Shown one piece after another: positions 3,371 through 11,139 of a DNA stretch of 11,139 nucleotides (its first letter is position 1; each line of letters begins with the position of its first letter). Origin of the DNA: a virus; the IMG/VR virus record IMGVR_UViG_3300045988_158900. One strand, 5' to 3'. The notes below the pieces were generated by a model that was given only the letters and a program-made list of their open reading frames with translations, searched no databases and had not been told where the DNA came from. The position numbers and the translations under genes are program-made.

Positions 3371-4411
3371 ATGCGAGTGATGAAAGACTCTGAGTATCTA
3401 GCATTTAAGCAGTTAGCCAAGCTTACTCAAGACCAAATGATTAGGGCTATGCGTGCGGTGTTAGAGGCTCGTTATACAGATATTATCGCAACAAAGGAAT
3501 ATATTGTAGCCAAGGGAGATATTCCTATCGGATTGGTTGCCCATATGGATACAGTGTTTCCGCTTCCTCCTACTGAAATTTATTATGATACTACACAGAA
3601 TGTTGTGTGGAGTCCGCAGGGTCTTGGAGCTGATGACCGCGCTGGTATATTCGCGATTCTTCAGATTCTGAAGACTACAAAATTGCGTCCGCATATTATT
3701 TTGACAACTGATGAAGAGAAGGGTGGATGGGGCGCGTACGCCCTTGTTGAACAGCATCCCGATTTTCCGTTTGGTGATTTGAAATATCTGATTCAGTTGG
3801 ACCGCCAGGGCGCGAATGATTGTGTGTTTTATGATGGTATCAATGAAGATTTTATTCGTTATGTATCTTCTTTTGGTTTCGTAGAGCATATTGGTTCATT
3901 CAGCGATATTAGTATTCTGTGTCCATTCTGGGATGTGTGCGGCGTCAATCTTTCTGTCGGTTATAAAAATGAGCATAGTCTCATTGAAACATTAAATATT
4001 AGCCATTTGTTCGATACCATCCAAAAGGTGAAGAGAATGTTGATGGTGAAGGAAATTCCTGATTTTGAGTGGAAGGAAAAATATTATCCTTATTTCACTA
4101 ATGGGTATCCTTTGGATGATGACATTGATGAATATAGCGCGGCTTATGGCTATAATTGGGTAAATGATAGACGTTCTGTTGATGCTTATACGGTAATTTG
4201 TCATAATTGTAAGAAGCCGTTTTATAATTATGAGACATTCCCCACTAAGAAAATCGATGGTGGAACTATGTTCTTGTGCCCCGATTGTGTGGGCGACCAT
4301 GCTAATTGGTGCGATTGTTGTGGCGAAGCATTTGAGCGCACACCGGAAAACGCCGGGGCCACTCTTTGCCCTGACTGTGCGAAAATTGAGAAGATTAAGG
4401 TTAAAGGTTAA
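3371..4411 (+). CDS. Metallopeptidase-like protein: a clan MH (M42/M20/M28-like) domain fused to a C-terminal four-CxxC zinc ribbon.
   Basis: Motifs in the order expected for co-catalytic zinc peptidases: VAHMDTV (H-x-D), GADDRAGIFAIL (DDRAG, as in M42/M20), TTDEEKGGWGA (the Glu-Glu pair). C-terminus: CHNCKK...CPDC...CDCC...CPDC. The TAA stop overlaps the next ATG (TAATG at 4409-4413). Confidence 0.55.
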   Translation: MRVMKDSEYLAFKQLAKLTQDQMIRAMRAVLEARYTDIIATKEYIVAKGDIPIGLVAHMDTVFPLPPTEIYYDTTQNVVWSPQGLGADDRAGIFAILQILKTTKLRPHIILTTDEEKGGWGAYALVEQHPDFPFGDLKYLIQLDRQGANDCVFYDGINEDFIRYVSSFGFVEHIGSFSDISILCPFWDVCGVNLSVGYKNEHSLIETLNISHLFDTIQKVKRMLMVKEIPDFEWKEKYYPYFTNGYPLDDDIDEYSAAYGYNWVNDRRSVDAYTVICHNCKKPFYNYETFPTKKIDGGTMFLCPDCVGDHANWCDCCGEAFERTPENAGATLCPDCAKIEKIKVKG

Positions 4412-5874
4412 TGAAGAGTTATAATTTAGATGAACTAAAGCAGCAAGTTAAACACGTATTAGAGTATAGTCAGGGTATTTATGATGTGAGTGAAGCCGCT
4501 CTTGATAATATGATGAATGAATGGGAGCGCAATAAAGCGCAATTCATTAATAATTTTATGGGCGGTAAACTCATTGTGGAACTGCCGGGCAAGCGCTTCT
4601 TCCATCTGGGAGAGAAGGCAAAACTCAAGAAATATAATGATTTCTTGGATTATGTTGCTCTGCGAATAAATAATTATGAGTTATGCCGATTTATCGAAAC
4701 GCAGGGTGAAGAAGGATTCTATGAGAATACCGTAAAAACTGGTTGGGACCATACTAAGAGTAATACATTTATTTCGCCGGGTTCTAAACTAATACGAGCA
4801 TTTAAATATTTTATTGAAGATAAGGATTTGCTGGAAACTGTTCAAAATGAGGCCAGTCGTATTATTCAAGGAGACTGTATTGAGGGCATTCTTTGTATAT
4901 CAGTCCATCCCCTTGATTACCTCAGCTTAAGCGAAACTACATATAACTGGCGTTCTTGCCACGCTCTTGATGGTGAATATCGCGCTGGTAATTTGAGTTA
5001 TTTGATGGATGGTAGTACATTTATCTGTTATTTAAGAGGCGATGATAAACAAAACCTCCCTTCATTTCCCGATGATTTACTCTGGAATAGTAAGAAGTGG
5101 CGTTGTTTGGGCTTCTTGGCTGATGATGAAAATGGTATCATTATGGGCCGTCCATATCCTTATGAAGCCGCAGATATTATTGATGAACTTCGTTGGGAAG
5201 TGTTTAATAGAGAATGGAATTTGGGCCTTGGTAGTTGGCGCGCAGACGCCATTCGTTCGGTTCAAGACCGCTTAACTAACTGGGATGAAGATTTAAGTCG
5301 TACTTATATCCCTTGGAATGGCCGTCTTGTAGAACTTGATAAAACTGTTCATGACTGTCCAAGTCCTACTCATTATAATGATATTCTTTTATCCAGTTGT
5401 TATTTGCCTATTTATGCTCGTGGTAAAGGATATTTTGGTAAGAATGATTGGAAGAAGGTTCAGTATCATATTGGACATTCAGTAATGTGTATCCATTGTA
5501 ATTCTGAGTATGTATCTCCTGGTGATGGCACAATGATGTGTCGTTCTTGTGAGATTAGATATGGCAATTCTGACAGTGATAATATTGTTTATTGTGAGAA
5601 TTGCGGTTGTCGTTTATGGTATGAAGATGCAATTGTTGTTGGAGATAATGGAAATTATCTTTGTAGTGAGTGCGCCAGTAGAATCACCAAAACTTGTAGA
5701 GATTGCGGTAATCCATATTACATTGATGATTTAACATATCACAAAGACGATGAAGATGAAAACGGCGGATATTATCTGTGTGGATGGTGCGAACAAGATA
5801 GACAGGACACGGAAGAAATCGCAGAAAATGAATCTTCTACTACTACCATCAGTTTTGATGAATTTGATCTGTAG
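4411..5874 (+). CDS. Hypothetical protein (487 aa), paralog of ORF 50-1789, with a C-terminal multi-CxxC zinc-ribbon region.
   Basis: Start codon overlaps the upstream stop, suggesting translational coupling. Shares the HPLD / SC / WNSKKWRC / YPY core with ORF 50-1789. C-terminus: CIHCN...CRSCE...CENCGC...CSECA...CRDCG...CGWCE. It ends at TAG, the only TAG terminator in the window (see findings). Confidence 0.8.
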   Translation: MKSYNLDELKQQVKHVLEYSQGIYDVSEAALDNMMNEWERNKAQFINNFMGGKLIVELPGKRFFHLGEKAKLKKYNDFLDYVALRINNYELCRFIETQGEEGFYENTVKTGWDHTKSNTFISPGSKLIRAFKYFIEDKDLLETVQNEASRIIQGDCIEGILCISVHPLDYLSLSETTYNWRSCHALDGEYRAGNLSYLMDGSTFICYLRGDDKQNLPSFPDDLLWNSKKWRCLGFLADDENGIIMGRPYPYEAADIIDELRWEVFNREWNLGLGSWRADAIRSVQDRLTNWDEDLSRTYIPWNGRLVELDKTVHDCPSPTHYNDILLSSCYLPIYARGKGYFGKNDWKKVQYHIGHSVMCIHCNSEYVSPGDGTMMCRSCEIRYGNSDSDNIVYCENCGCRLWYEDAIVVGDNGNYLCSECASRITKTCRDCGNPYYIDDLTYHKDDEDENGGYYLCGWCEQDRQDTEEIAENESSTTTISFDEFDL

Positions 5875-5992
5875 TCATTAAATACAAGACCTATATATTA
5901 TATACACGATGAAAATGGCGAATGGATACCTATTACGCGAGTGCGTCAAATACCTCCGCCAGAACGTGAGTAATTATTTAAATATTTAAGGA

Positions 5993-6292: not shown

Positions 6293-6297
6293 TATAA

Positions 6298-6331
6298 TGA
6301 GATAAGTCATTTGACTTATCTCATTTTTTTT
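6298..6331 (+). terminator. Rho-independent terminator: 12-bp inverted repeat TGAGATAAGTCA / TGACTTATCTCA followed by an 8-T run.
   Basis: Arms 6298-6309 and 6312-6323 are exact reverse complements. T-run 6324-6331. Overlaps the -35 of the next promoter. Confidence 0.6.
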
Positions 6332-6339
6332 GTTATAAT
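6311..6339 (+). promoter_or_regulatory. sigma70 promoter with extended -10: TTGACT (6311-6316), 17-nt spacer, TGtTATAAT (TG 6331-6332, TATAAT 6334-6339). Probable promoter of the TAG-recoded operon.
   Basis: Hexamers 5/6 and 6/6, spacer 17, TGn extension. RBS AAGGAG 6359-6364. ATG at 6372. Confidence 0.55.
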
Positions 6340-6371
6340 TTAAATAGAATTAGATTATAAGGAGATTTAAA

Positions 6372-7073
6372 ATGTATAATCAAATTATTGAAGAATTAGA
6401 AGCTCTTAAATAGCATTTTGATGATGAAGATATTGTATCATATCAATTACTCTTAATTAAAATTAAGAAAATTATTGATTTAATTAATGATAAACAACTT
6501 GAGGAAGCAGATAAAAGCAAATTATCTAATTATATTCGAGATTATTTAGCAAATTTGCATTTAAATAGAATTTTCACAATTTCTGATTTGAATGAATTAT
6601 TTATTCCAGAAGTGAAAGATTTAGATATTGGTAATAAAAATATTTATATTACAATTTTTAATTTATTCGTGGAAGAATTATCTGATGTAGATAACATTTT
6701 TTCTCAAAAACTTAAATATTGTATTACAAATATGATTTCTAGAATTGCTACTTCTGTAGATGAAGCAATGGCCGTAGAAGATAAAACTCAAGAAACTGCA
6801 GTTAATGAACCTGTTCAAATTATTCCAACTATAAATACAGTAAATACTAATTCATTCGATTTGGATATTGATATTACTAATAAAAATTATTTGAAAGAAT
6901 ATATTATGCGTAAAAATTTAAAACCTTATCGATGTGATATTTGTGGATTAAGTTCTTGGCAAAACAATCCTCTTATGCTATATTTATACAGTAAAAATCA
7001 TATTTATTCAAATAAAAATTTAGAAAATTTGATGTTTTTATGCCCTAATTGCTATTCTCAGATTGGAGAGTAA
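6372..7073 (+). CDS. HNH (His-Me finger)-like endonuclease, 233 codons, with one in-frame TAG (6411-6413) read as sense.
   Basis: ATG 7 nt after AGGAG. Frame open to TAA except for the single TAG. C-terminal motif CDIC...NHIYSNKNLENLMFLCPNCY matches the C-x2-C...HI...N...NL..LC-x2-C HNH pattern. Confidence 0.65.
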
Positions 7074-7076
7074 TTT

Positions 7077-8264
7077 ATGTATTATAATTCTTATAATTAG
7101 AATTATTTTAATGAATTAAATAAAATATTCAATAAATTTGATACTAATAATATTAATGATTATTATAATTTATTAAAATTAATATATGATATATATTTTA
7201 ATGAAAATGTATTTATAATTGTTAATGATGATATAAAATATCAATTAGAATCAAATTTAAAATTACTTATTAAAAAAAATAATTGGTTTATAGATTTTGA
7301 ACAAACTGAAAAAAATATATTAATTTCATTATTTATTATAATTACTTAGAAAATTAATTTTGGAAATTATTATCAAATTAATAATACATTAAAACAATAG
7401 ATTGAATCATTATTATTAGATAAAAATTTAATTAATGAAAAAATGATTCATGATAGTAAAAATGTTTTTCATTTAGTTGATAGTTTTCCTGAAAATGAAA
7501 GTATGATTAAATTTTTTAAGCAATATAATATTGATATTATGAATTAGGAATTTTTAACTATTGGTGATACGAAAATTCCTAATTTTTATTTAAAACAAAA
7601 AAATAAAATGATAGATCATTATTATGAATTTTGCCATTTATTATTTAAAATTTATAGTCCAATCTTATATTATGGTGTTTCATTTGAAGAAGGATATGAA
7701 TATAAAATAACTAATAAAGATATTGTATTTGATTGTGGTGGAAATATGGGACTATTCGCGCTATACTGCGCTTCAAAAGGCGCGCGAGTATATTGTTTTG
7801 AGCCTATGTCTTATATTAGAGATTTTTTATATGAAAGTCAAAAATTATATCCTGATTTAATCCATATTATTCCTTGCGGAGTGTCTAATAGAAATTAGGA
7901 ACAATATTTTTCTCAAACCTATAATCCAGGAGCTGGATCGAATTCAATATTTCATGAATTAGAATATACATCTGATAGATTATATAAAGAAAAATGTAAA
8001 TTAATTACATTAGATTCATTTAGTTAGAATAATCATATTGTTCCTACATTTATTAAAGCAGATATTGAAGGGTCTGAAGCACAAATGCTTGAAGGCGCTT
8101 CACAAATTTTACAAACATATAAACCAACTATGAATATTTGTTTAAATCATCGGACGGAAGACCAATATAATATTCCTACCCTTATTTATAATATCAATTC
8201 TAATTATTCATTTTATTATTTTATTGAAGGAGAAATACATTCTAAATTTGTATTGTGTAAATAA
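7077..8264 (+). CDS. FkbM-family SAM-dependent methyltransferase (C-terminal about 220 aa) with an N/I/K/Y-rich low-complexity N-terminal extension of about 177 aa. Six in-frame TAG sense codons (7098, 7347, 7398, 7545, 7896, 8025). The methyltransferase domain could alternatively start at the ATG at 7608.
   Basis: RBS GGAGAG 8 nt before the ATG at 7077. In a stretch of about 85% AT the frame carries no TAA/TGA for 396 codons, which is very unlikely by chance. Motifs DCGGNMGLFALYCASKGARVYCFEP (FkbM DxGANxG...FEP) and FIKADIEGSEAQMLEGASQIL (FkbM IDxLKIDxEGxE). TAA stop. Confidence 0.65.
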
Positions 8265-8266
8265 AT

Positions 8267-9220
8267 ATGCCAAATATTATTTTAACAGAATATTGTAATC
8301 TTCAATGTCCTTACTGTTTTGCTAGTAAAATGATTGAAGAAAAAACAGATGATACTAAAAATATTTCTCTTGAATAGTTAGATATGATTTTAAAATGGTT
8401 ATTACCTTCAGCAACGAATTTAGATCGGATTGGATTAATTGGAGGAGAACCTACTTTACATCCTTAGTTTAGAGAGATATTAGGTAGAATAAATTCATTT
8501 AATGAATTTACAAATACTTCTTCAATAGTATTTACGAATGGAATTAATTTAAGTGAATTTTTATCTGCTATTGGACCAAATATGTCAATTTTAATTAATG
8601 TAAATGAATTGACTGGTAAATCATTAAATAAACTTAATAGTGTATTAGATGAAATTAATTATTTAAGTTGGTTTAAAATTGATAAAGTTATTTTAGGATG
8701 TAATTTATACCAAAATGAAAATGATTATTCTTATTTTTGGAATGTAGTTGATAAATATCCAGATATTTTAAGAATAAGAATGTCTATTACTGCACCCAAT
8801 AGCAAAGAATTAAGAGCAAATAAAGAATTGTATTATACTATTATGAAACCTATATTATTACAATTTTTAGAAGAAACTAAAAAACGTGATATAAAAATTT
8901 CATATGACTGTAATTAGATTCCGTTATGTTTATTAAACAATGAAGAATAGGATTTAATAAATCAATTAGGGGAATTAAATAGTTTTTGTGAGCCCGTTAT
9001 AGATATTACTCCAGATTTTAAAGCTACTTGCTGTTTTGGTGTTTATGATAATCCCATTCAATGTAATGATTTTAATAATATCGAAGAATTAACTAGATAT
9101 TTTAAAAATCAAATAGTAATAAAAACTATAAATAATAACACTTCCATGTGCAAAGATTGTAAAAAATTACAACTTGCTCAATGTCAAGGAGGATGTTTAT
9201 CATTTTCTAATGTTGGGTAA
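8267..9220 (+). CDS. Radical SAM enzyme with a C-terminal SPASM/twitch-type Cys cluster, a RiPP-maturase-like protein of 317 codons. Four in-frame TAG sense codons (8375, 8465, 8915, 8948).
   Basis: N-terminal CNLQCPYC (CX3CX2C) at residues 10-17. GLIGGEPTL glycine-rich SAM motif. C-terminal CEP...TCCFG...QCND...SMCKDCKKLQLAQCQGGC. No TAA/TGA in frame until the TAA at 9218. Start is 2 nt after the upstream stop. Confidence 0.85.
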
Positions 9221-9278
9221 GTATAAGTAATAAAGTTTTATAATTTTTTAATTCTAAAAAAGAAGGAGGAATTTTTTT

Positions 9279-9716
9279 ATGGCAAATATTACTTATGAAT
9301 TAATTTTTAAATTTACTTCTGGTAAAGAGGTAAATTTTATTGATGAAGAACATATATTTTCTATTGTAGAAGATTATCGTTCTCCAGTTCTTTTAACCCC
9401 TCAAATGTTTGGTATTGATGATTTACGTGAGTATTATGCATTATTATTAATTGATGGCAAACCTATGGAAGATTATGCATCAAATTATTGTAATTTTAAA
9501 AATTTTGGTAATTCTATTGTTGATTTGCTTAATAATGAAGATACTATTTCAGAAATTATTTTAAGAGATACTAATACTAAAGGAGAATATTTCCATATAA
9601 ACTCTGATCAATTAGTAGGTATTGAAGCCGGCGGAGGAACTGATAGAGGTTTTGATAATATAATGGTATATCGCATACAAATTTATTATAAAAAAGTTGG
9701 AAAAATAGGTGAGTAA
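9279..9716 (+). CDS. Hypothetical protein (145 aa) between the radical-SAM gene and the precursor-like gene. Possible accessory or leader-recognition partner.
   Basis: Strong RBS AAGGAGGA 8 nt upstream of the ATG. No internal stop codons. TAA stop 2 nt before the next ATG. No family recognised. Confidence 0.75.
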   Translation: MANITYELIFKFTSGKEVNFIDEEHIFSIVEDYRSPVLLTPQMFGIDDLREYYALLLIDGKPMEDYASNYCNFKNFGNSIVDLLNNEDTISEIILRDTNTKGEYFHINSDQLVGIEAGGGTDRGFDNIMVYRIQIYYKKVGKIGE

Positions 9717-9718
9717 TA

Positions 9719-10339
9719 ATGGGAGCTAATGCTACATCTGTAGGTACTTTAGTTAAATTATCTGATTTAGATGCATTATATTTACGTTTATATAATTTAA
9801 AAGTAGCCCATATTAATGATGCAGATTAGATTAATAAATCTGCTCTAACGGTTCCAGCTCAAAGTAGTGGATTGACACGAGGTAGTAAAGTAGGAGTTTC
9901 AACTGCTAAAATTGCAACATTAAAATCTGAATTGGCAAATTTAGCTCAATCAAAATGGTATCAATCTAACACAGCAAATACTGTAGTAACAATGACAGAT
10001 TTTAGTACAAATATTAAAGTACCTAATGTAGGAGATTTATTAAAAAGTGTAGATTTTAATCTAATTGAAACTGCAATCACTTCTGCAGAATAGATTATTC
10101 CTGCTTATTCCAATAAATATAATATTCGTTATAGTGGTCGTTATTATGGACATTATAGTGATTGTTATAGTGATTGTTATAGTGCTCGATATGGTACTTG
10201 TTATAGTAATTGTTATGGAGGCCGTTATAGTGCCCGATATGGCACTTGTTACAGTTGTTATGGCTGTTATGGTTGTTATCGCAGATATAGCTCAAGGTAT
10301 GGTAGATATGCTGCAAAAAATGTTCAAATTAGATGTTAA
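9719..10339 (+). CDS. Candidate RiPP precursor-like protein (206 codons). Leader domain of about 124 aa. TAG sense codons at 9827 and at the leader/core junction (10091). About 82-aa C-terminal core is a tandem [Y-(S/G)-x-(C/R)] array (9 Cys, about 20 Tyr).
   Basis: ATG with AGGTGA RBS. Core reads IIPAYSNKYNIRYSGRYYGHYSDCYSDCYSARYGTCYSNCYGGRYSARYGTCYSCYGCYGCYRRYSSRYGRYAAKNVQIRC, then TAA. The core has no internal Met, so it can only be made by reading through the TAG from the leader. Flanked on both sides by radical-SAM genes. Confidence 0.7.
10130..10279 (+). repeat. Degenerate tandem repeat with 12-nt (4-codon) periodicity, for example AGTGATTGTTAT x2, CGATATGGTACTTGTTATAG / CGATATGGCACTTGTTACAG. 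Collapses to 9-nt units (GGCTGTTAT GGTTGTTAT) near the 3' end.
   Basis: Read directly; encodes the Y-S/G-x-C/R peptide repeats. The periodicity leaves all three plus frames and some minus frames open. That explains the spurious ORFs 10065-10364 (+) and 10095-10316 (-). Confidence 0.8.
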
Positions 10340-10350
10340 AGGTGAATTAA

Positions 10351-11139
10351 ATGTTAATAAATAAATTAGATTTAATGGGATCCAGCAGCTGTGATTTAAA
10401 ATGTTCTTATTGTTATATTACAAAAAATTGTTCATTTTATAATTATGATTCCGCCGTTCAAGAAGCTTGGGAAACTGGATCTTATTTAACTACTATTAAA
10501 CAAGTTTTTTCGAAATTGGATGCAGACCCTACTCAAATAAAAGATTTAGAATTTTGGGGAGGAGAACCTACATTACATATTAAAGAAATGGCTTCTCAGG
10601 GAAAAGCATTAGGATAGTTATTTCCAGAAGTTGATTTTGTATTAATCCCAACTAATTGGTATTAGATTAATATGCAAGCCTTAGTAGATTTTATTTACAA
10701 TTTTAATGATGGTATCTCTCCTCGTGGAAGTAAATCAAAAAATGTTAATTTTCATTTACAATTATCCATTGATGGACCTCCTGGAGATTTTAATACTTAT
10801 GGTCATAAAGTACCTTGGGATACTTATAAAAAACAATTTGATGATTTTTGTTTTTATTTAAAAGAAAAAGAAAATTCTGGAAGAGAATTAAAAAATATTA
10901 ATATTATTTTCGCTATTAGTGGAACCTCTTAGCAAAAATATATTTTAAAAAATTTAAATACTTTAGATAAAATAAAAGAATTTCAAGAATATATTAAAAA
11001 AGTTTGTAAATATGTAAATGATGAACTAAAACAATTTAAAACTATAGATATATTTTTAGGAACTCCAATTTGGACTCCTACAGTAGCTATTCCAGATTCG
11101 ACAACCACGGAAGAAGCATTAGAATTAAATAAAATTGCA
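10351..11139 (+). CDS. Second radical SAM enzyme, 5' partial (continues past the window end), paralogous at its N-terminus to ORF 8267-9220. Three in-frame TAG sense codons (10615, 10663, 10930).
   Basis: RBS AAAGGTGA. CDLKCSYC (CX3CX2C) at residues 14-21. FWGGEPTL motif. Frame open to the window end with no TAA/TGA. Confidence 0.8.

Follow-up and report, generated by a model that had tools for sequence, protein, structure and literature searches.

What do the radical-SAM (S-adenosylmethionine) enzymes encoded by a large, phage-like genome from the human gut act upon? The question is raised by an 11,139-nt stretch of DNA, IMG/VR record IMGVR_UViG_3300045988_158900 (hereafter the window; coordinates refer to it unless an L-number is given). 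Six consecutive genes in its right-hand part, g1 to g6, include two that encode radical-SAM proteins (g3 and g6) and one that encodes a protein with a long, periodic aromatic tail (g5). The original prediction placed them in a pathway for a peptide that is made by the ribosome and modified after translation (RiPP), framed after the sactipeptides and ranthipeptides, with an emphasis on Cys in the core. Comparative sequence analysis leads us to think that the cassette is probably a post-translational modification system with g5 as substrate, and that the radical-SAM enzymes likely modify the aromatic tail of g5.

The aromatic-repeat protein and its conserved neighborhood

The g5 protein (206 residues; 9719-10339, + strand) is made up of the following parts:

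9719..10105, + strand: N-terminal domain (residues 1-129), conserved and helical; leader-like or functional
10106..10309, + strand: aromatic repeat [R/C/K/Q]-Y-[S/G]-x, with period 4 and then 3, containing 20 Tyr; proposed modification site
10310..10339, + strand: C-terminal end AAKNVQIRC plus TAA; K-x-V-Q-I-R-C is conserved in the close clade

The 20 Tyr of the tail fall within 78 residues, and 17 of their 19 spacings are 3 or 4. At the DNA level the repeat is a degenerate 12/24/48-nt tandem array. The first 129 or so residues are well conserved among 58 close homologues, and 40 columns are invariant over the whole protein (22 sequences). From Tyr130 on, Tyr is the sole conserved feature of the close clade, with a spacing of 4 in 837 and of 3 in 170 of 1,057 cases, and both the tail length and the non-Tyr residues are hypervariable. 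When 1.84 billion representatives were searched exhaustively with a profile, about 45 clusters (50% identity) proved to carry the g5 N-terminal domain, in which P102, G105, L107 and H31 are near-invariant over 44 distant members. Phe replaces Tyr as the periodic aromatic in distant members. The tail types include RYGS/QYGS, YSK/YSQ (period 3), GYRSSYDS, HYGG, and the Phe forms SFNSSFNA and NFTSNFTS. A short RiPP-like core, CNYEACSYTPCVGCEYTYPCGGCCES, is attached to the equivalent N-terminal domain in L022.

Cys did not hold up as the key residue of the core, since only the periodic aromatic is conserved. Where the window has Cys, close relatives have Arg, Gln, Asp, Asn or Lys. The enzymes are retained even where the repeats contain little or no Cys, as in L011, L013, L015, L023, L024 and many representatives. 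This bears directly on a Cys-dependent thioether RiPP, in which SPASM enzymes would join Cys sulfur to acceptor carbons within the Cys/Tyr core of a sactipeptide or ranthipeptide. Because Cys is dispensable across the family, we regard such a product as very unlikely. Moreover, matches to PapB-type maturases cover the SAM-binding N-terminus only and are far below the cutoff (28 bits for g3 and 24.5 bits for g6 against 340), as is the SkfB score (29.8 against 300). With neither conserved Cys donors nor maturases near these cutoffs, the sactipeptide/ranthipeptide framing finds no support.

The neighborhood of the repeat gene was read in 13 contexts, about 12 of them independent, which were reached either through the repeat protein or g3 (L001, L004, L005, L011, L013, L014, L015, L016) or through g6 in IMG/VR (L022, L023, L024, L026, L029). 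In 11 of the 13, the genes follow the order small protein, aromatic-repeat protein, rSAM-A (g6), rSAM-B with a SPASM domain, small protein. The order is complete in L001, L005, L011, L013, L014, L015, L016, L022, L023 and L024, and L004 shows it with a truncated rSAM-B. The exceptions are L026, where the repeat open reading frame (ORF) was not resolved, and L029, where repeat genes lie downstream instead. Linkage of the radical-SAM genes to a repeat ORF in homologues, whose absence the original prediction had named as grounds for refutation, is therefore conserved in 11 contexts. Six contexts are IMG/VR viral contigs (L001, L011, L022, L023, L024, L029) and the others unclassified metagenome assemblies; where it could be judged, contigs are mostly 118-250 kb long, and some are only 9-30 kb.

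Could the linkage be incidental or regulatory? In that case the radical-SAM genes would belong to another pathway, and g5 would remain an unmodified Tyr/Arg/Ser/Gly protein of low complexity that might, for example, act as a self-associating scaffold. The AlphaFold2 model of the tail is compatible with this, since it is predicted to be disordered (predicted local distance difference test, pLDDT, <40), and the composition of the tail, [G/S]Y[G/S] with Arg, is reminiscent of self-associating low-complexity domains. However, the gene order is kept across about 11 contexts and three genetic codes, with repeat-protein identity down to about 20%. Because such conservation is hard to explain otherwise, functional coupling of the repeat gene and the radical-SAM genes is favored, and we consider an incidental or regulatory linkage very improbable.

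The codes in question are TAG read as Gln, TGA read as Trp (L014, L023) and the standard code (L016, L022). Because the cassette is common to TAG-recoded, TGA-recoded and standard-code genomes, it appears that the module predates or crosses the recoding events.

Around this core the gene content varies. L016 and L022 lack g1, g2 (an FkbM-type methyltransferase) and g3, which together make up an accessory submodule. The repeat protein has two invariant partners, g6 and the gene that follows it beyond the end of the window. A YcaO gene is found within the cassette in L004, L013, L014, L015 and L024, and GT8 or GT2 glycosyltransferase genes in L001, L004, L014, L015, L016 and L023. A papain-like peptidase and an SDF transporter each occur occasionally.

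L029 has its own arrangement. A protein with a G-[F/Y]-S repeat of period 3 (L029 645-1523) is encoded upstream of its radical-SAM pair, and two downstream proteins (L029 6159-7397) carry His/Tyr repeats, T-H-x-x-x-Y-R-x-T-H. These repeat proteins may be alternative substrates.

The radical-SAM enzymes and their possible chemistry

The two radical-SAM genes of the window and their main motifs are as follows:

8267..9220, + strand: g3, 317 residues, four in-frame TAG; radical-SAM enzyme lacking an N-terminal RiPP recognition element (RRE)
8294-8317, + strand: CX3CX2C motif of g3 (residues 10-17; C10/C14/C17), invariant in 29 homologues
8909-9196, + strand: SPASM-like auxiliary Cys region of g3 (residues 215-310), with C215, C221, C241, C256 and C295-x2-C298-x7-C306-x3-C310
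10351..11139, + strand: g6 (rSAM-A), first 263 of 478 residues, with three in-frame TAG in the window; divergent radical-SAM protein
10390-10413, + strand: CX3CX2C motif of g6 (residues 14-21); C14, C18 and C21 invariant in eight of eight relatives

Both proteins had been predicted to be radical-SAM enzymes. The g3 product scored 43.1 bits against PF04055, above the 29.5 cutoff, whereas g6 carries the CX3CX2C motif, as g3 does, and remained below the same cutoff with 18.6 bits (Fer4_12, 20.8 against 22). Full-length g6, taken from L001, has a twitch-like C-x13-G-x4-C motif beyond the end of the window, and its WGGE, D317, G318 and C323 (twitch-like motif) are invariant in all eight relatives (22-56% identity).

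A SPASM-like Cys cluster in g3 was likewise part of the original prediction and finds mixed support. Eight or nine further Cys are invariant among the 29 homologues (41-99% identity). The motif that we used to recognize SPASM domains is a C-terminal CX9-15GX4C...CX2CX5CX3C...C; the pattern of g3, C241-x14-C256...C295-x2-C298-x7-C306-x3-C310, has an x7 spacer where the motif has x5, and the SPASM hidden Markov models (HMMs) gave no match to g3 at E<=1. On the positive side, an AlphaFold2 model of the g3 homologue P0059 (pLDDT 89) aligned over about 270 of 317 residues with anSME, SuiB and ChlB, three SPASM enzymes that modify proteins or peptides. They were its nearest structures and outranked BlsE, TigE, MoaA, viperin, SkfB, CteB and PqqE. 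Identity to these neighbors is low (15% to anSME, PDB 4K36, and 14% to ChlB).

It was also considered that g3 and g6 might be viperins. This was rejected: the PADLOC matches cover the generic SAM-binding region only, and the NCBIfam viperin score was 49.7 against a cutoff of 180.

For g6, weak NCBIfam matches of its relatives are mostly to peptide maturases (PapB in 8/8, YhhB in 7/8, AmcB in 5/8 and GrrM in 4/8). YhhB, AmcB, GrrM and XyeB, which are cyclophane-forming families, are among these weak matches, at E values of 1e-7 to 1e-3 and over the SAM domain only; g6 itself matched cyclophane maturases at E 0.013-0.016 (14 bits against cutoffs of 445-450). A g6 profile found anSME (7.6e-4) and ChlB (0.04) weakly in the PDB, where single-sequence searches with g6 and rSAM-B gave nothing useful.

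The third protein, rSAM-B, is encoded directly after g6 (L001 12509-13693, 394 residues) and has a canonical CX2CX5CX3C SPASM motif. It lacks CX3CX2C in the lineage of the window (L001, L005, L011) and keeps it in L013, L015, L016, L023, L024, L026 and L029. In the former lineage it is probably catalytically dead as a radical-SAM protein and persists for the sake of its SPASM domain.

A member of the triceptide class, ChlB is a multiple cyclophane synthase with the Omega1-X2-X3 motifs YSK, HAS and FTK (PMC12912966). Units of this kind (YSK, YSQ, FTS) occur in the repeat tails, where Tyr or Phe recurs with period 3-4. A triceptide-type cyclophane is favored because the motif, the position of ChlB as a structural neighbor and the enrichment of cyclophane-maturase HMM matches all fit it. 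Cyclophane-type links are accordingly our leading guess for the chemistry, if a doubtful one. Besides the sub-cutoff scores of the enzymes, two observations speak against this specific chemistry: the dominant period of the repeats is 4, and residue X3 (Tyr+2) is Gly in 12-16% of repeats, which has no beta carbon and could not form a C-beta cyclophane.

More general points weigh against a radical-SAM modification of g5. No radical-SAM protein of the cassette reaches the cutoff of any curated peptide-maturase family, and no RRE domain was detected in Pfam or NCBIfam. A dedicated leader peptidase or exporter is not conserved across contexts. The would-be leader is folded and about 125 residues long, and the core extends to more than 100 residues, both of which are atypical for RiPPs.

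Modification of g5 could take place as follows. The N-terminal domain of g5, possibly helped by g4, would dock the substrate on the radical-SAM enzymes. Each enzyme would cleave SAM reductively and abstract a hydrogen atom, so that a cross-link would be installed at every aromatic repeat, the likeliest being a triceptide-type (Omega1-X2-X3) cyclophane with a carbon-carbon link. The tail would then be methylated and glycosylated, and in some lineages undergo YcaO backbone chemistry in addition. The expected product is a rigid, protease-resistant, poly-macrocyclic tail, which would either be retained on the N-terminal domain (associated, for example, with the virion or its tail) or be cut off as a peptide.

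Another conceivable product is a small molecule derived from Tyr, as in the PQQ or mycofactocin pathways. The tail would then be a multi-copy precursor that undergoes radical-SAM chemistry at each Tyr, proteolytic release, methylation and glycosylation. The core module contains no conserved peptidase, PqqD/MftB-like RRE or flavoenzyme, and the non-aromatic positions of the repeat are too variable for a defined small product. We therefore give this alternative a very slim chance.

Some cassettes also encode, downstream of the genes in the window, a conserved domain of about 275 residues that begins with FE(I/F)PYNFD and has an invariant C-x3-C-x-G-x2-H-W. There are one to three copies per cassette (L001 15434-16260, fused to GT8; L013 16375-18839, three tandem paralogues; and L004, L011 and L014). 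It was considered whether these might be U32-like anaerobic Tyr hydroxylases, and the idea was dropped: a profile of seven sequences had no PDB match, and Pfam returned nothing relevant.

Fate of the tail and relation to known systems

Glycosyltransferases in the cassette raise the question of whether g5 is better seen as a structural protein. According to this explanation, g5 would be a virion or tail protein, structural or adhesive, with an O-glycosylated Ser/Thr/Tyr-rich tail, and the main task of the radical-SAM enzymes and FkbM would be to make or modify an unusual sugar. Besides the GT8 or GT2 genes of six contexts, tail-fiber/adhesin-like genes (tail fiber, collar, Laminin_G or Flg_new) adjoin the module in L013, L014, L016, L022 and L029; the tail-fiber-like N-terminus among these flanking genes was recognized by eye and not by a tool. 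These glycosyltransferases and neighbors suit a structural glycoprotein as well as a modified peptide and weigh against our preference for the latter. The heavy TAG recoding of the block would fit late genes, as recoding is reported to be concentrated in structural and lysis genes (10.1101/2021.08.26.457843). The recoded island is presumably expressed late.

A weak match to phrog_9648, annotated as a tail protein, recurs in 17 of 21 g5 members (best E 1e-3, sub-threshold); g5 had no significant match in Pfam, NCBIfam, PHROGs or PADLOC. The AlphaFold2 model of the N-terminal domain consists of three helices and a hairpin (block-mean pLDDT 60-84), and Foldseek found no match for it with E<0.1 in BFVD or PDB. 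Because the fold search gave no match, the lead towards a tail protein comes from the weak PHROG match only, and the lack of a solved or predicted viral structural fold argues against a structural role.

Fusions give a further hint in the structural direction. A Hint/intein-like domain (PF01079) directly follows the repeat in four clusters, P0192 (L014 10001-11002), P0194, P0198 and P0200. These domains start with Cys, and P0192 and P0200 have an HN dipeptide near the C-terminus. The fusion suggests autoproteolytic release or transfer of the C-terminus of the tail. A C-terminal domain of this kind is reminiscent of the self-cleaving ones of phage fibers. Such fusions would suit a modified virion-associated protein, which counts against a classical RiPP.

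Other evidence points away from a structural glycoprotein. No tail-fiber/adhesin-like gene directly flanks the module in the genome of the window, whose neighbors within 10 kb are small unassigned genes, tRNAs and non-structural proteins. Glycosylation alone leaves the aromatic periodicity unexplained, and two invariant radical-SAM genes placed directly after the repeat gene are a typical enzyme-substrate layout. Taken together, we assign a structural glycoprotein with sugar-directed enzymes a small but real chance and prefer modification of the g5 tail itself.

Comparison with known systems helps to place the latter. Triceptides (XyeB, YhhB, GrrM/OscB, ChlB, MicB; rSAM/SPASM 3-CyFE) are one close parallel, as the g5 tail contains aromatic motifs of the Omega1-X2-X3 kind. 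However, no enzyme of the cassette reaches the XyeB, YhhB, GrrM, AmcB or ChlB family cutoff, and ChlB is a structural neighbor only. There are 15-30 consecutive repeats in g5 compared to 1-5 in triceptides, with a dominant period of 4 instead of 3 and the Gly-containing X3 positions mentioned above. In addition, g5 has a folded 125-residue N-terminal domain instead of a short leader, each cluster encodes at least two radical-SAM proteins, and the genes reside in a phage genome whose stop codon is recoded.

The bacterial His-Xaa-Ser system (HxsA, HxsB, HxsC, HxsD) also combines a ring-bearing residue that recurs at short period beside small polar residues with paired radical-SAM proteins and a small accessory protein, and g3 and g6 weakly match HxsB and HxsC. 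The scores, 15-30 bits, are far below the cutoffs of 268-370 (HxsC, 28.6 bits against 267.9; HxsB, 26.8 and 17.2 against 370), the ring-bearing residue is Tyr or Phe instead of His, and the N-terminal domain is large. As to anSME, whose action on a sulfatase had been listed as a possible refutation, neither a sulfatase nor a C/S-x-P-x-R motif is present and the TIGR03942 score was 30 bits against 349.

Proteusin/NHLP-type RiPPs resemble g5 in having a large, protein-like N-terminal region ahead of a modified C-terminal core. Two reports provide a precedent for protein-like leaders of 80-100 residues that guide modification of a C-terminal core (PMC10858898, PMC12537861). Unlike those precursors, g5 matches no NHLP or Nif11 model, and its fold is without detectable match.

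Finally, stop-codon-recoded gut phages (the crAss-like, Lak, Jade, Sapphire and Agate clades, with TAG read as Gln or TGA as Trp) share with this genome the use of TAG in one gene block while neighbors avoid it, a large parent contig, a human gut source, and cassette relatives that use either recoding. Differences are that no suppressor tRNA was found in the 20 kb examined and that the preprint describing recoding (10.1101/2021.08.26.457843) makes no mention of radical-SAM genes. A cassette of this kind in phages was not described in any of the literature that we searched.

All the enzymes are members of known superfamilies. What is unusual is the build of the substrate, the number of radical-SAM proteins and the location in a phage, in presumably late genes. 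On a tentative footing, it is conceivable that the cassette defines a new class of phage-encoded, ribosomally made, radical-SAM-cross-linked proteins, with 15-30 consecutive aromatic macrocycles, methylated and glycosylated, and made only after the code switch. Peptide maturation by radical-SAM/SPASM enzymes is usually seen as a trait of bacterial natural products, and here a conserved module is located on large viral or phage-like gut contigs. The module is elaborate, with three to five radical-SAM proteins plus YcaO, FkbM and glycosyltransferases depending on the lineage.

If the proposal is true, a long aromatic-periodic tail on a folded domain would be a new substrate architecture for radical-SAM enzymology, and a function would be found for a set of "dark matter" genes that abundant gut phages carry as a block. 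It would also be the first RiPP-type pathway to belong to the conserved core of a large phage lineage instead of to bacteria. This would raise the question of how the phage benefits, be it through virions that are more stable in the gut, through adhesion, or by killing competitors. The product might serve as a protease-proof appendage of the virion or tail, or as a peptide weapon or signal released at lysis. In this regard, the standard-code relatives (L016, L022) are convenient for expression in E. coli without recoding.

The recoded island and its surroundings

The gene for g4 lies on a human-gut metagenome scaffold of 194,444 bp (ERZ28656439 scaffold_63), which is L001, and on several shorter contigs. 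Contigs with close relatives span 128-198 kb, and two of them are IMG/VR viral contigs. The gene layout of the scaffold is phage-like. About 25 small same-strand genes with no assigned function lie upstream of the cassette, and no hallmark structural gene was found within the approximately 30 kb of the parent scaffold examined. Among 50,697 GenBank phage records there was no match to the window (megablast) or to g5 and a 579-residue upstream protein (tblastn); g3 gave only N-terminal matches of about 30%.

A mobile, recoded genome had been predicted and is supported: it is a phage genome, and its reading frames show the recoding. Under table 11, positions 6311-11139 break up into short ORFs; with TAG as a sense codon they form six unbroken same-strand ORFs (6372-11139). 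There are 16 in-frame TAG in g1 to g6, and the five complete genes all end in TAA. Further along the island in L001, up to 12 in-frame TAG occur per gene, with TAA or TGA as stops. When the genes of the window were aligned with orthologues of five divergent relatives, the residue opposite their TAG was most often Gln (18 times), followed by another TAG (11 times), and several TAG fall in conserved columns (HPqF/HPQF, DCNqIP/DCNQIP, SRqIDY/SGQIDY). Because Gln is the commonest counterpart and these columns agree, the reading of TAG as Gln in the right-hand block is supported. No suppressor tRNA with a CUA anticodon was detected in the 20 kb of L001 that were examined. A tRNA array (L001 18915-20358), about 80 nt past the last cassette gene, contains six genes (Trp-CCA, Phe, Asn, Leu-TAG, Ala and Thr), and the corresponding array in L008 contains seven.

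Base composition changes at the same place. At about 6300 the G+C fraction switches from 0.34-0.48 on the left to 0.14-0.33 on the right. The left-hand genes have no in-frame TAG, and one of them (4411-5874) stops at TAG. Past the cassette in L001, a TAG-free style of higher G+C resumes (gene 19056-19505, GC 0.38). The genome seems to be a mosaic in which blocks in the standard code and recoded blocks differ in base composition.

The start of the island is marked by two overlapping elements:

6296..6325, + strand: terminator-like hairpin, 13-bp stem followed by a T run; ends the upstream standard-code gene block
6311..6339, + strand: sigma70-like promoter, located 33 nt upstream of the g1 start codon (ATG); sequence TTGACT-17 nt-TATAAT, with an extended -10 (TG)

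The 3' arm of the hairpin includes the -35 hexamer of the operon promoter. Although no other site of the region matches as well (11/12, with TG), the AT-rich sequence as a whole has no excess of promoter-like matches over shuffled sequences (51 versus 46.8). A similar promoter is found at -61, -63 and -65 from the g1 start in L001, L011 and L013, and L011 and L013, in which the proteins share only about 50% identity, repeat the hairpin-promoter arrangement ahead of their g1 orthologue. The promoter was accepted because its position upstream of g1 is kept in divergent relatives, and not because of the match count.

A single promoter driving six genes with gaps of 2-12 nt had been proposed. The promoter stands by its conserved position, and the number of genes does not: in L001 the AT-rich recoded island comprises 12 genes over about 11.7 kb, so that the window cuts the operon and holds its first half. 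Neighboring genes are 2-11 nt apart, and only g3 and g4 are separated by more (58 nt). The genes after g6 in L001 encode the 394-residue SPASM protein, a 122-residue protein and a third radical-SAM enzyme of 467 residues. These are followed by a 513-residue fusion of a domain without assignment to a GT8 glycosyltransferase and by two more GT8-like proteins. Two ORFs overlapping g5, 10065-10364 (+ strand, 99 residues) and 10095-10316 (- strand, 73 residues), were dismissed as by-products of the TAT/TGT/CGT/AGT codon array. An Rfam scan of the window returned no RNA family.

The remaining genes of the operon are the following:

6372..7073, + strand: g1, 233 residues, one in-frame TAG; helical N-terminal part and C-terminal CxxC...CxxC zinc ribbon
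6873-7064, + strand: HNH-derived zinc ribbon of g1 (residues 168-231); phrog_10822 and phrog_14736 HNH, E about 1e-15
7077..8264, + strand: g2, 395 residues, six in-frame TAG; FkbM-family SAM-dependent methyltransferase
7725-8165, + strand: FkbM domain of g2 (residues 217-363); TIGR01444, PF05050
9279..9716, + strand: g4, 145 residues, no TAG; strong AAGGAGG ribosome-binding site

The HNH nuclease assigned to g1 was not confirmed. Its Pfam HNH score (PF01844) is 12.1 bits, below the 21.4 cutoff, and the PHROG and PADLOC HNH matches are limited to the zinc ribbon. Six orthologues keep the four zinc-ribbon Cys and one Asn, while the column of the catalytic His holds Y, N, W, K, D or H and the CPNC-H position is replaced by Y, F or N. 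Since g1 heads the cassette wherever the g3/FkbM submodule is present, it can no longer be taken as a sign of mobility; we read it as a degenerate HNH fold and a fixed cassette member, not a homing nuclease.

The methyltransferase assignment of g2 was correct, with scores above both cutoffs (TIGR01444, 69.3 bits against 37.7, E 4.7e-19; PF05050, 39.7 against 22.7). The domain follows an AT-rich N-terminal extension of about 200 residues, and g2 orthologues occupy the equivalent position in L004, L005, L011, L013 and L014.

As for g4, positional orthologues of 108-145 residues are encoded directly upstream of the repeat gene in all ten contexts read upstream of that gene. They evolve fast: similarity fades quickly, the positional orthologues can barely be aligned, and the homologues retrieved by protein search were all at least 81% identical. 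Apart from a spurious Cas10 match at 0.14, g4 matched nothing in Pfam, NCBIfam (E<=1), PHROG or PADLOC, and the leader-recognition (RRE) role suggested for it in the original prediction found no backing in Pfam or NCBIfam, where no PqqD/RRE domain matched at E<=1. The protein may be an adaptor or chaperone.

The left-hand block of the window contains five genes that are syntenic in the distant relative L011. Two of them encode large paralogous proteins (50-1789, 579 residues; 4411-5874, 487 residues) that share SxHPLD(F/Y), NSKKWRC and multiple C-terminal CxxC zinc-ribbon repeats; their only database match is a faint one to Prok-RING_4. A 346-residue protein (3371-4411) has a weak M20/M28 metallopeptidase signature (HxD...D...EE) and C-terminal CxxC zinc ribbons; its conservation extends to L011, where it is likewise encoded upstream of the cassette (Peptidase_M28, weak). 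This protein might act as a processing peptidase, although its gene is outside the recoded island.

The TAG stop of the 487-residue gene deserves a last comment. Read as Gln, it would add 33 codons up to a TAA at 5971-5973, as in the public gene call (520 residues). Downstream of this TAG, 97 nt are identical in three relatives save for one base, compared to about seven substitutions in the approximately 85 nt of coding DNA that precede it. The conserved block (5872-5973) had no Rfam match and no RNA-fold signal (z -0.05), and it contains a possible ORF of 25 residues, MKMANGYLLRECVKYLRQNVSNYLNI, in another frame.

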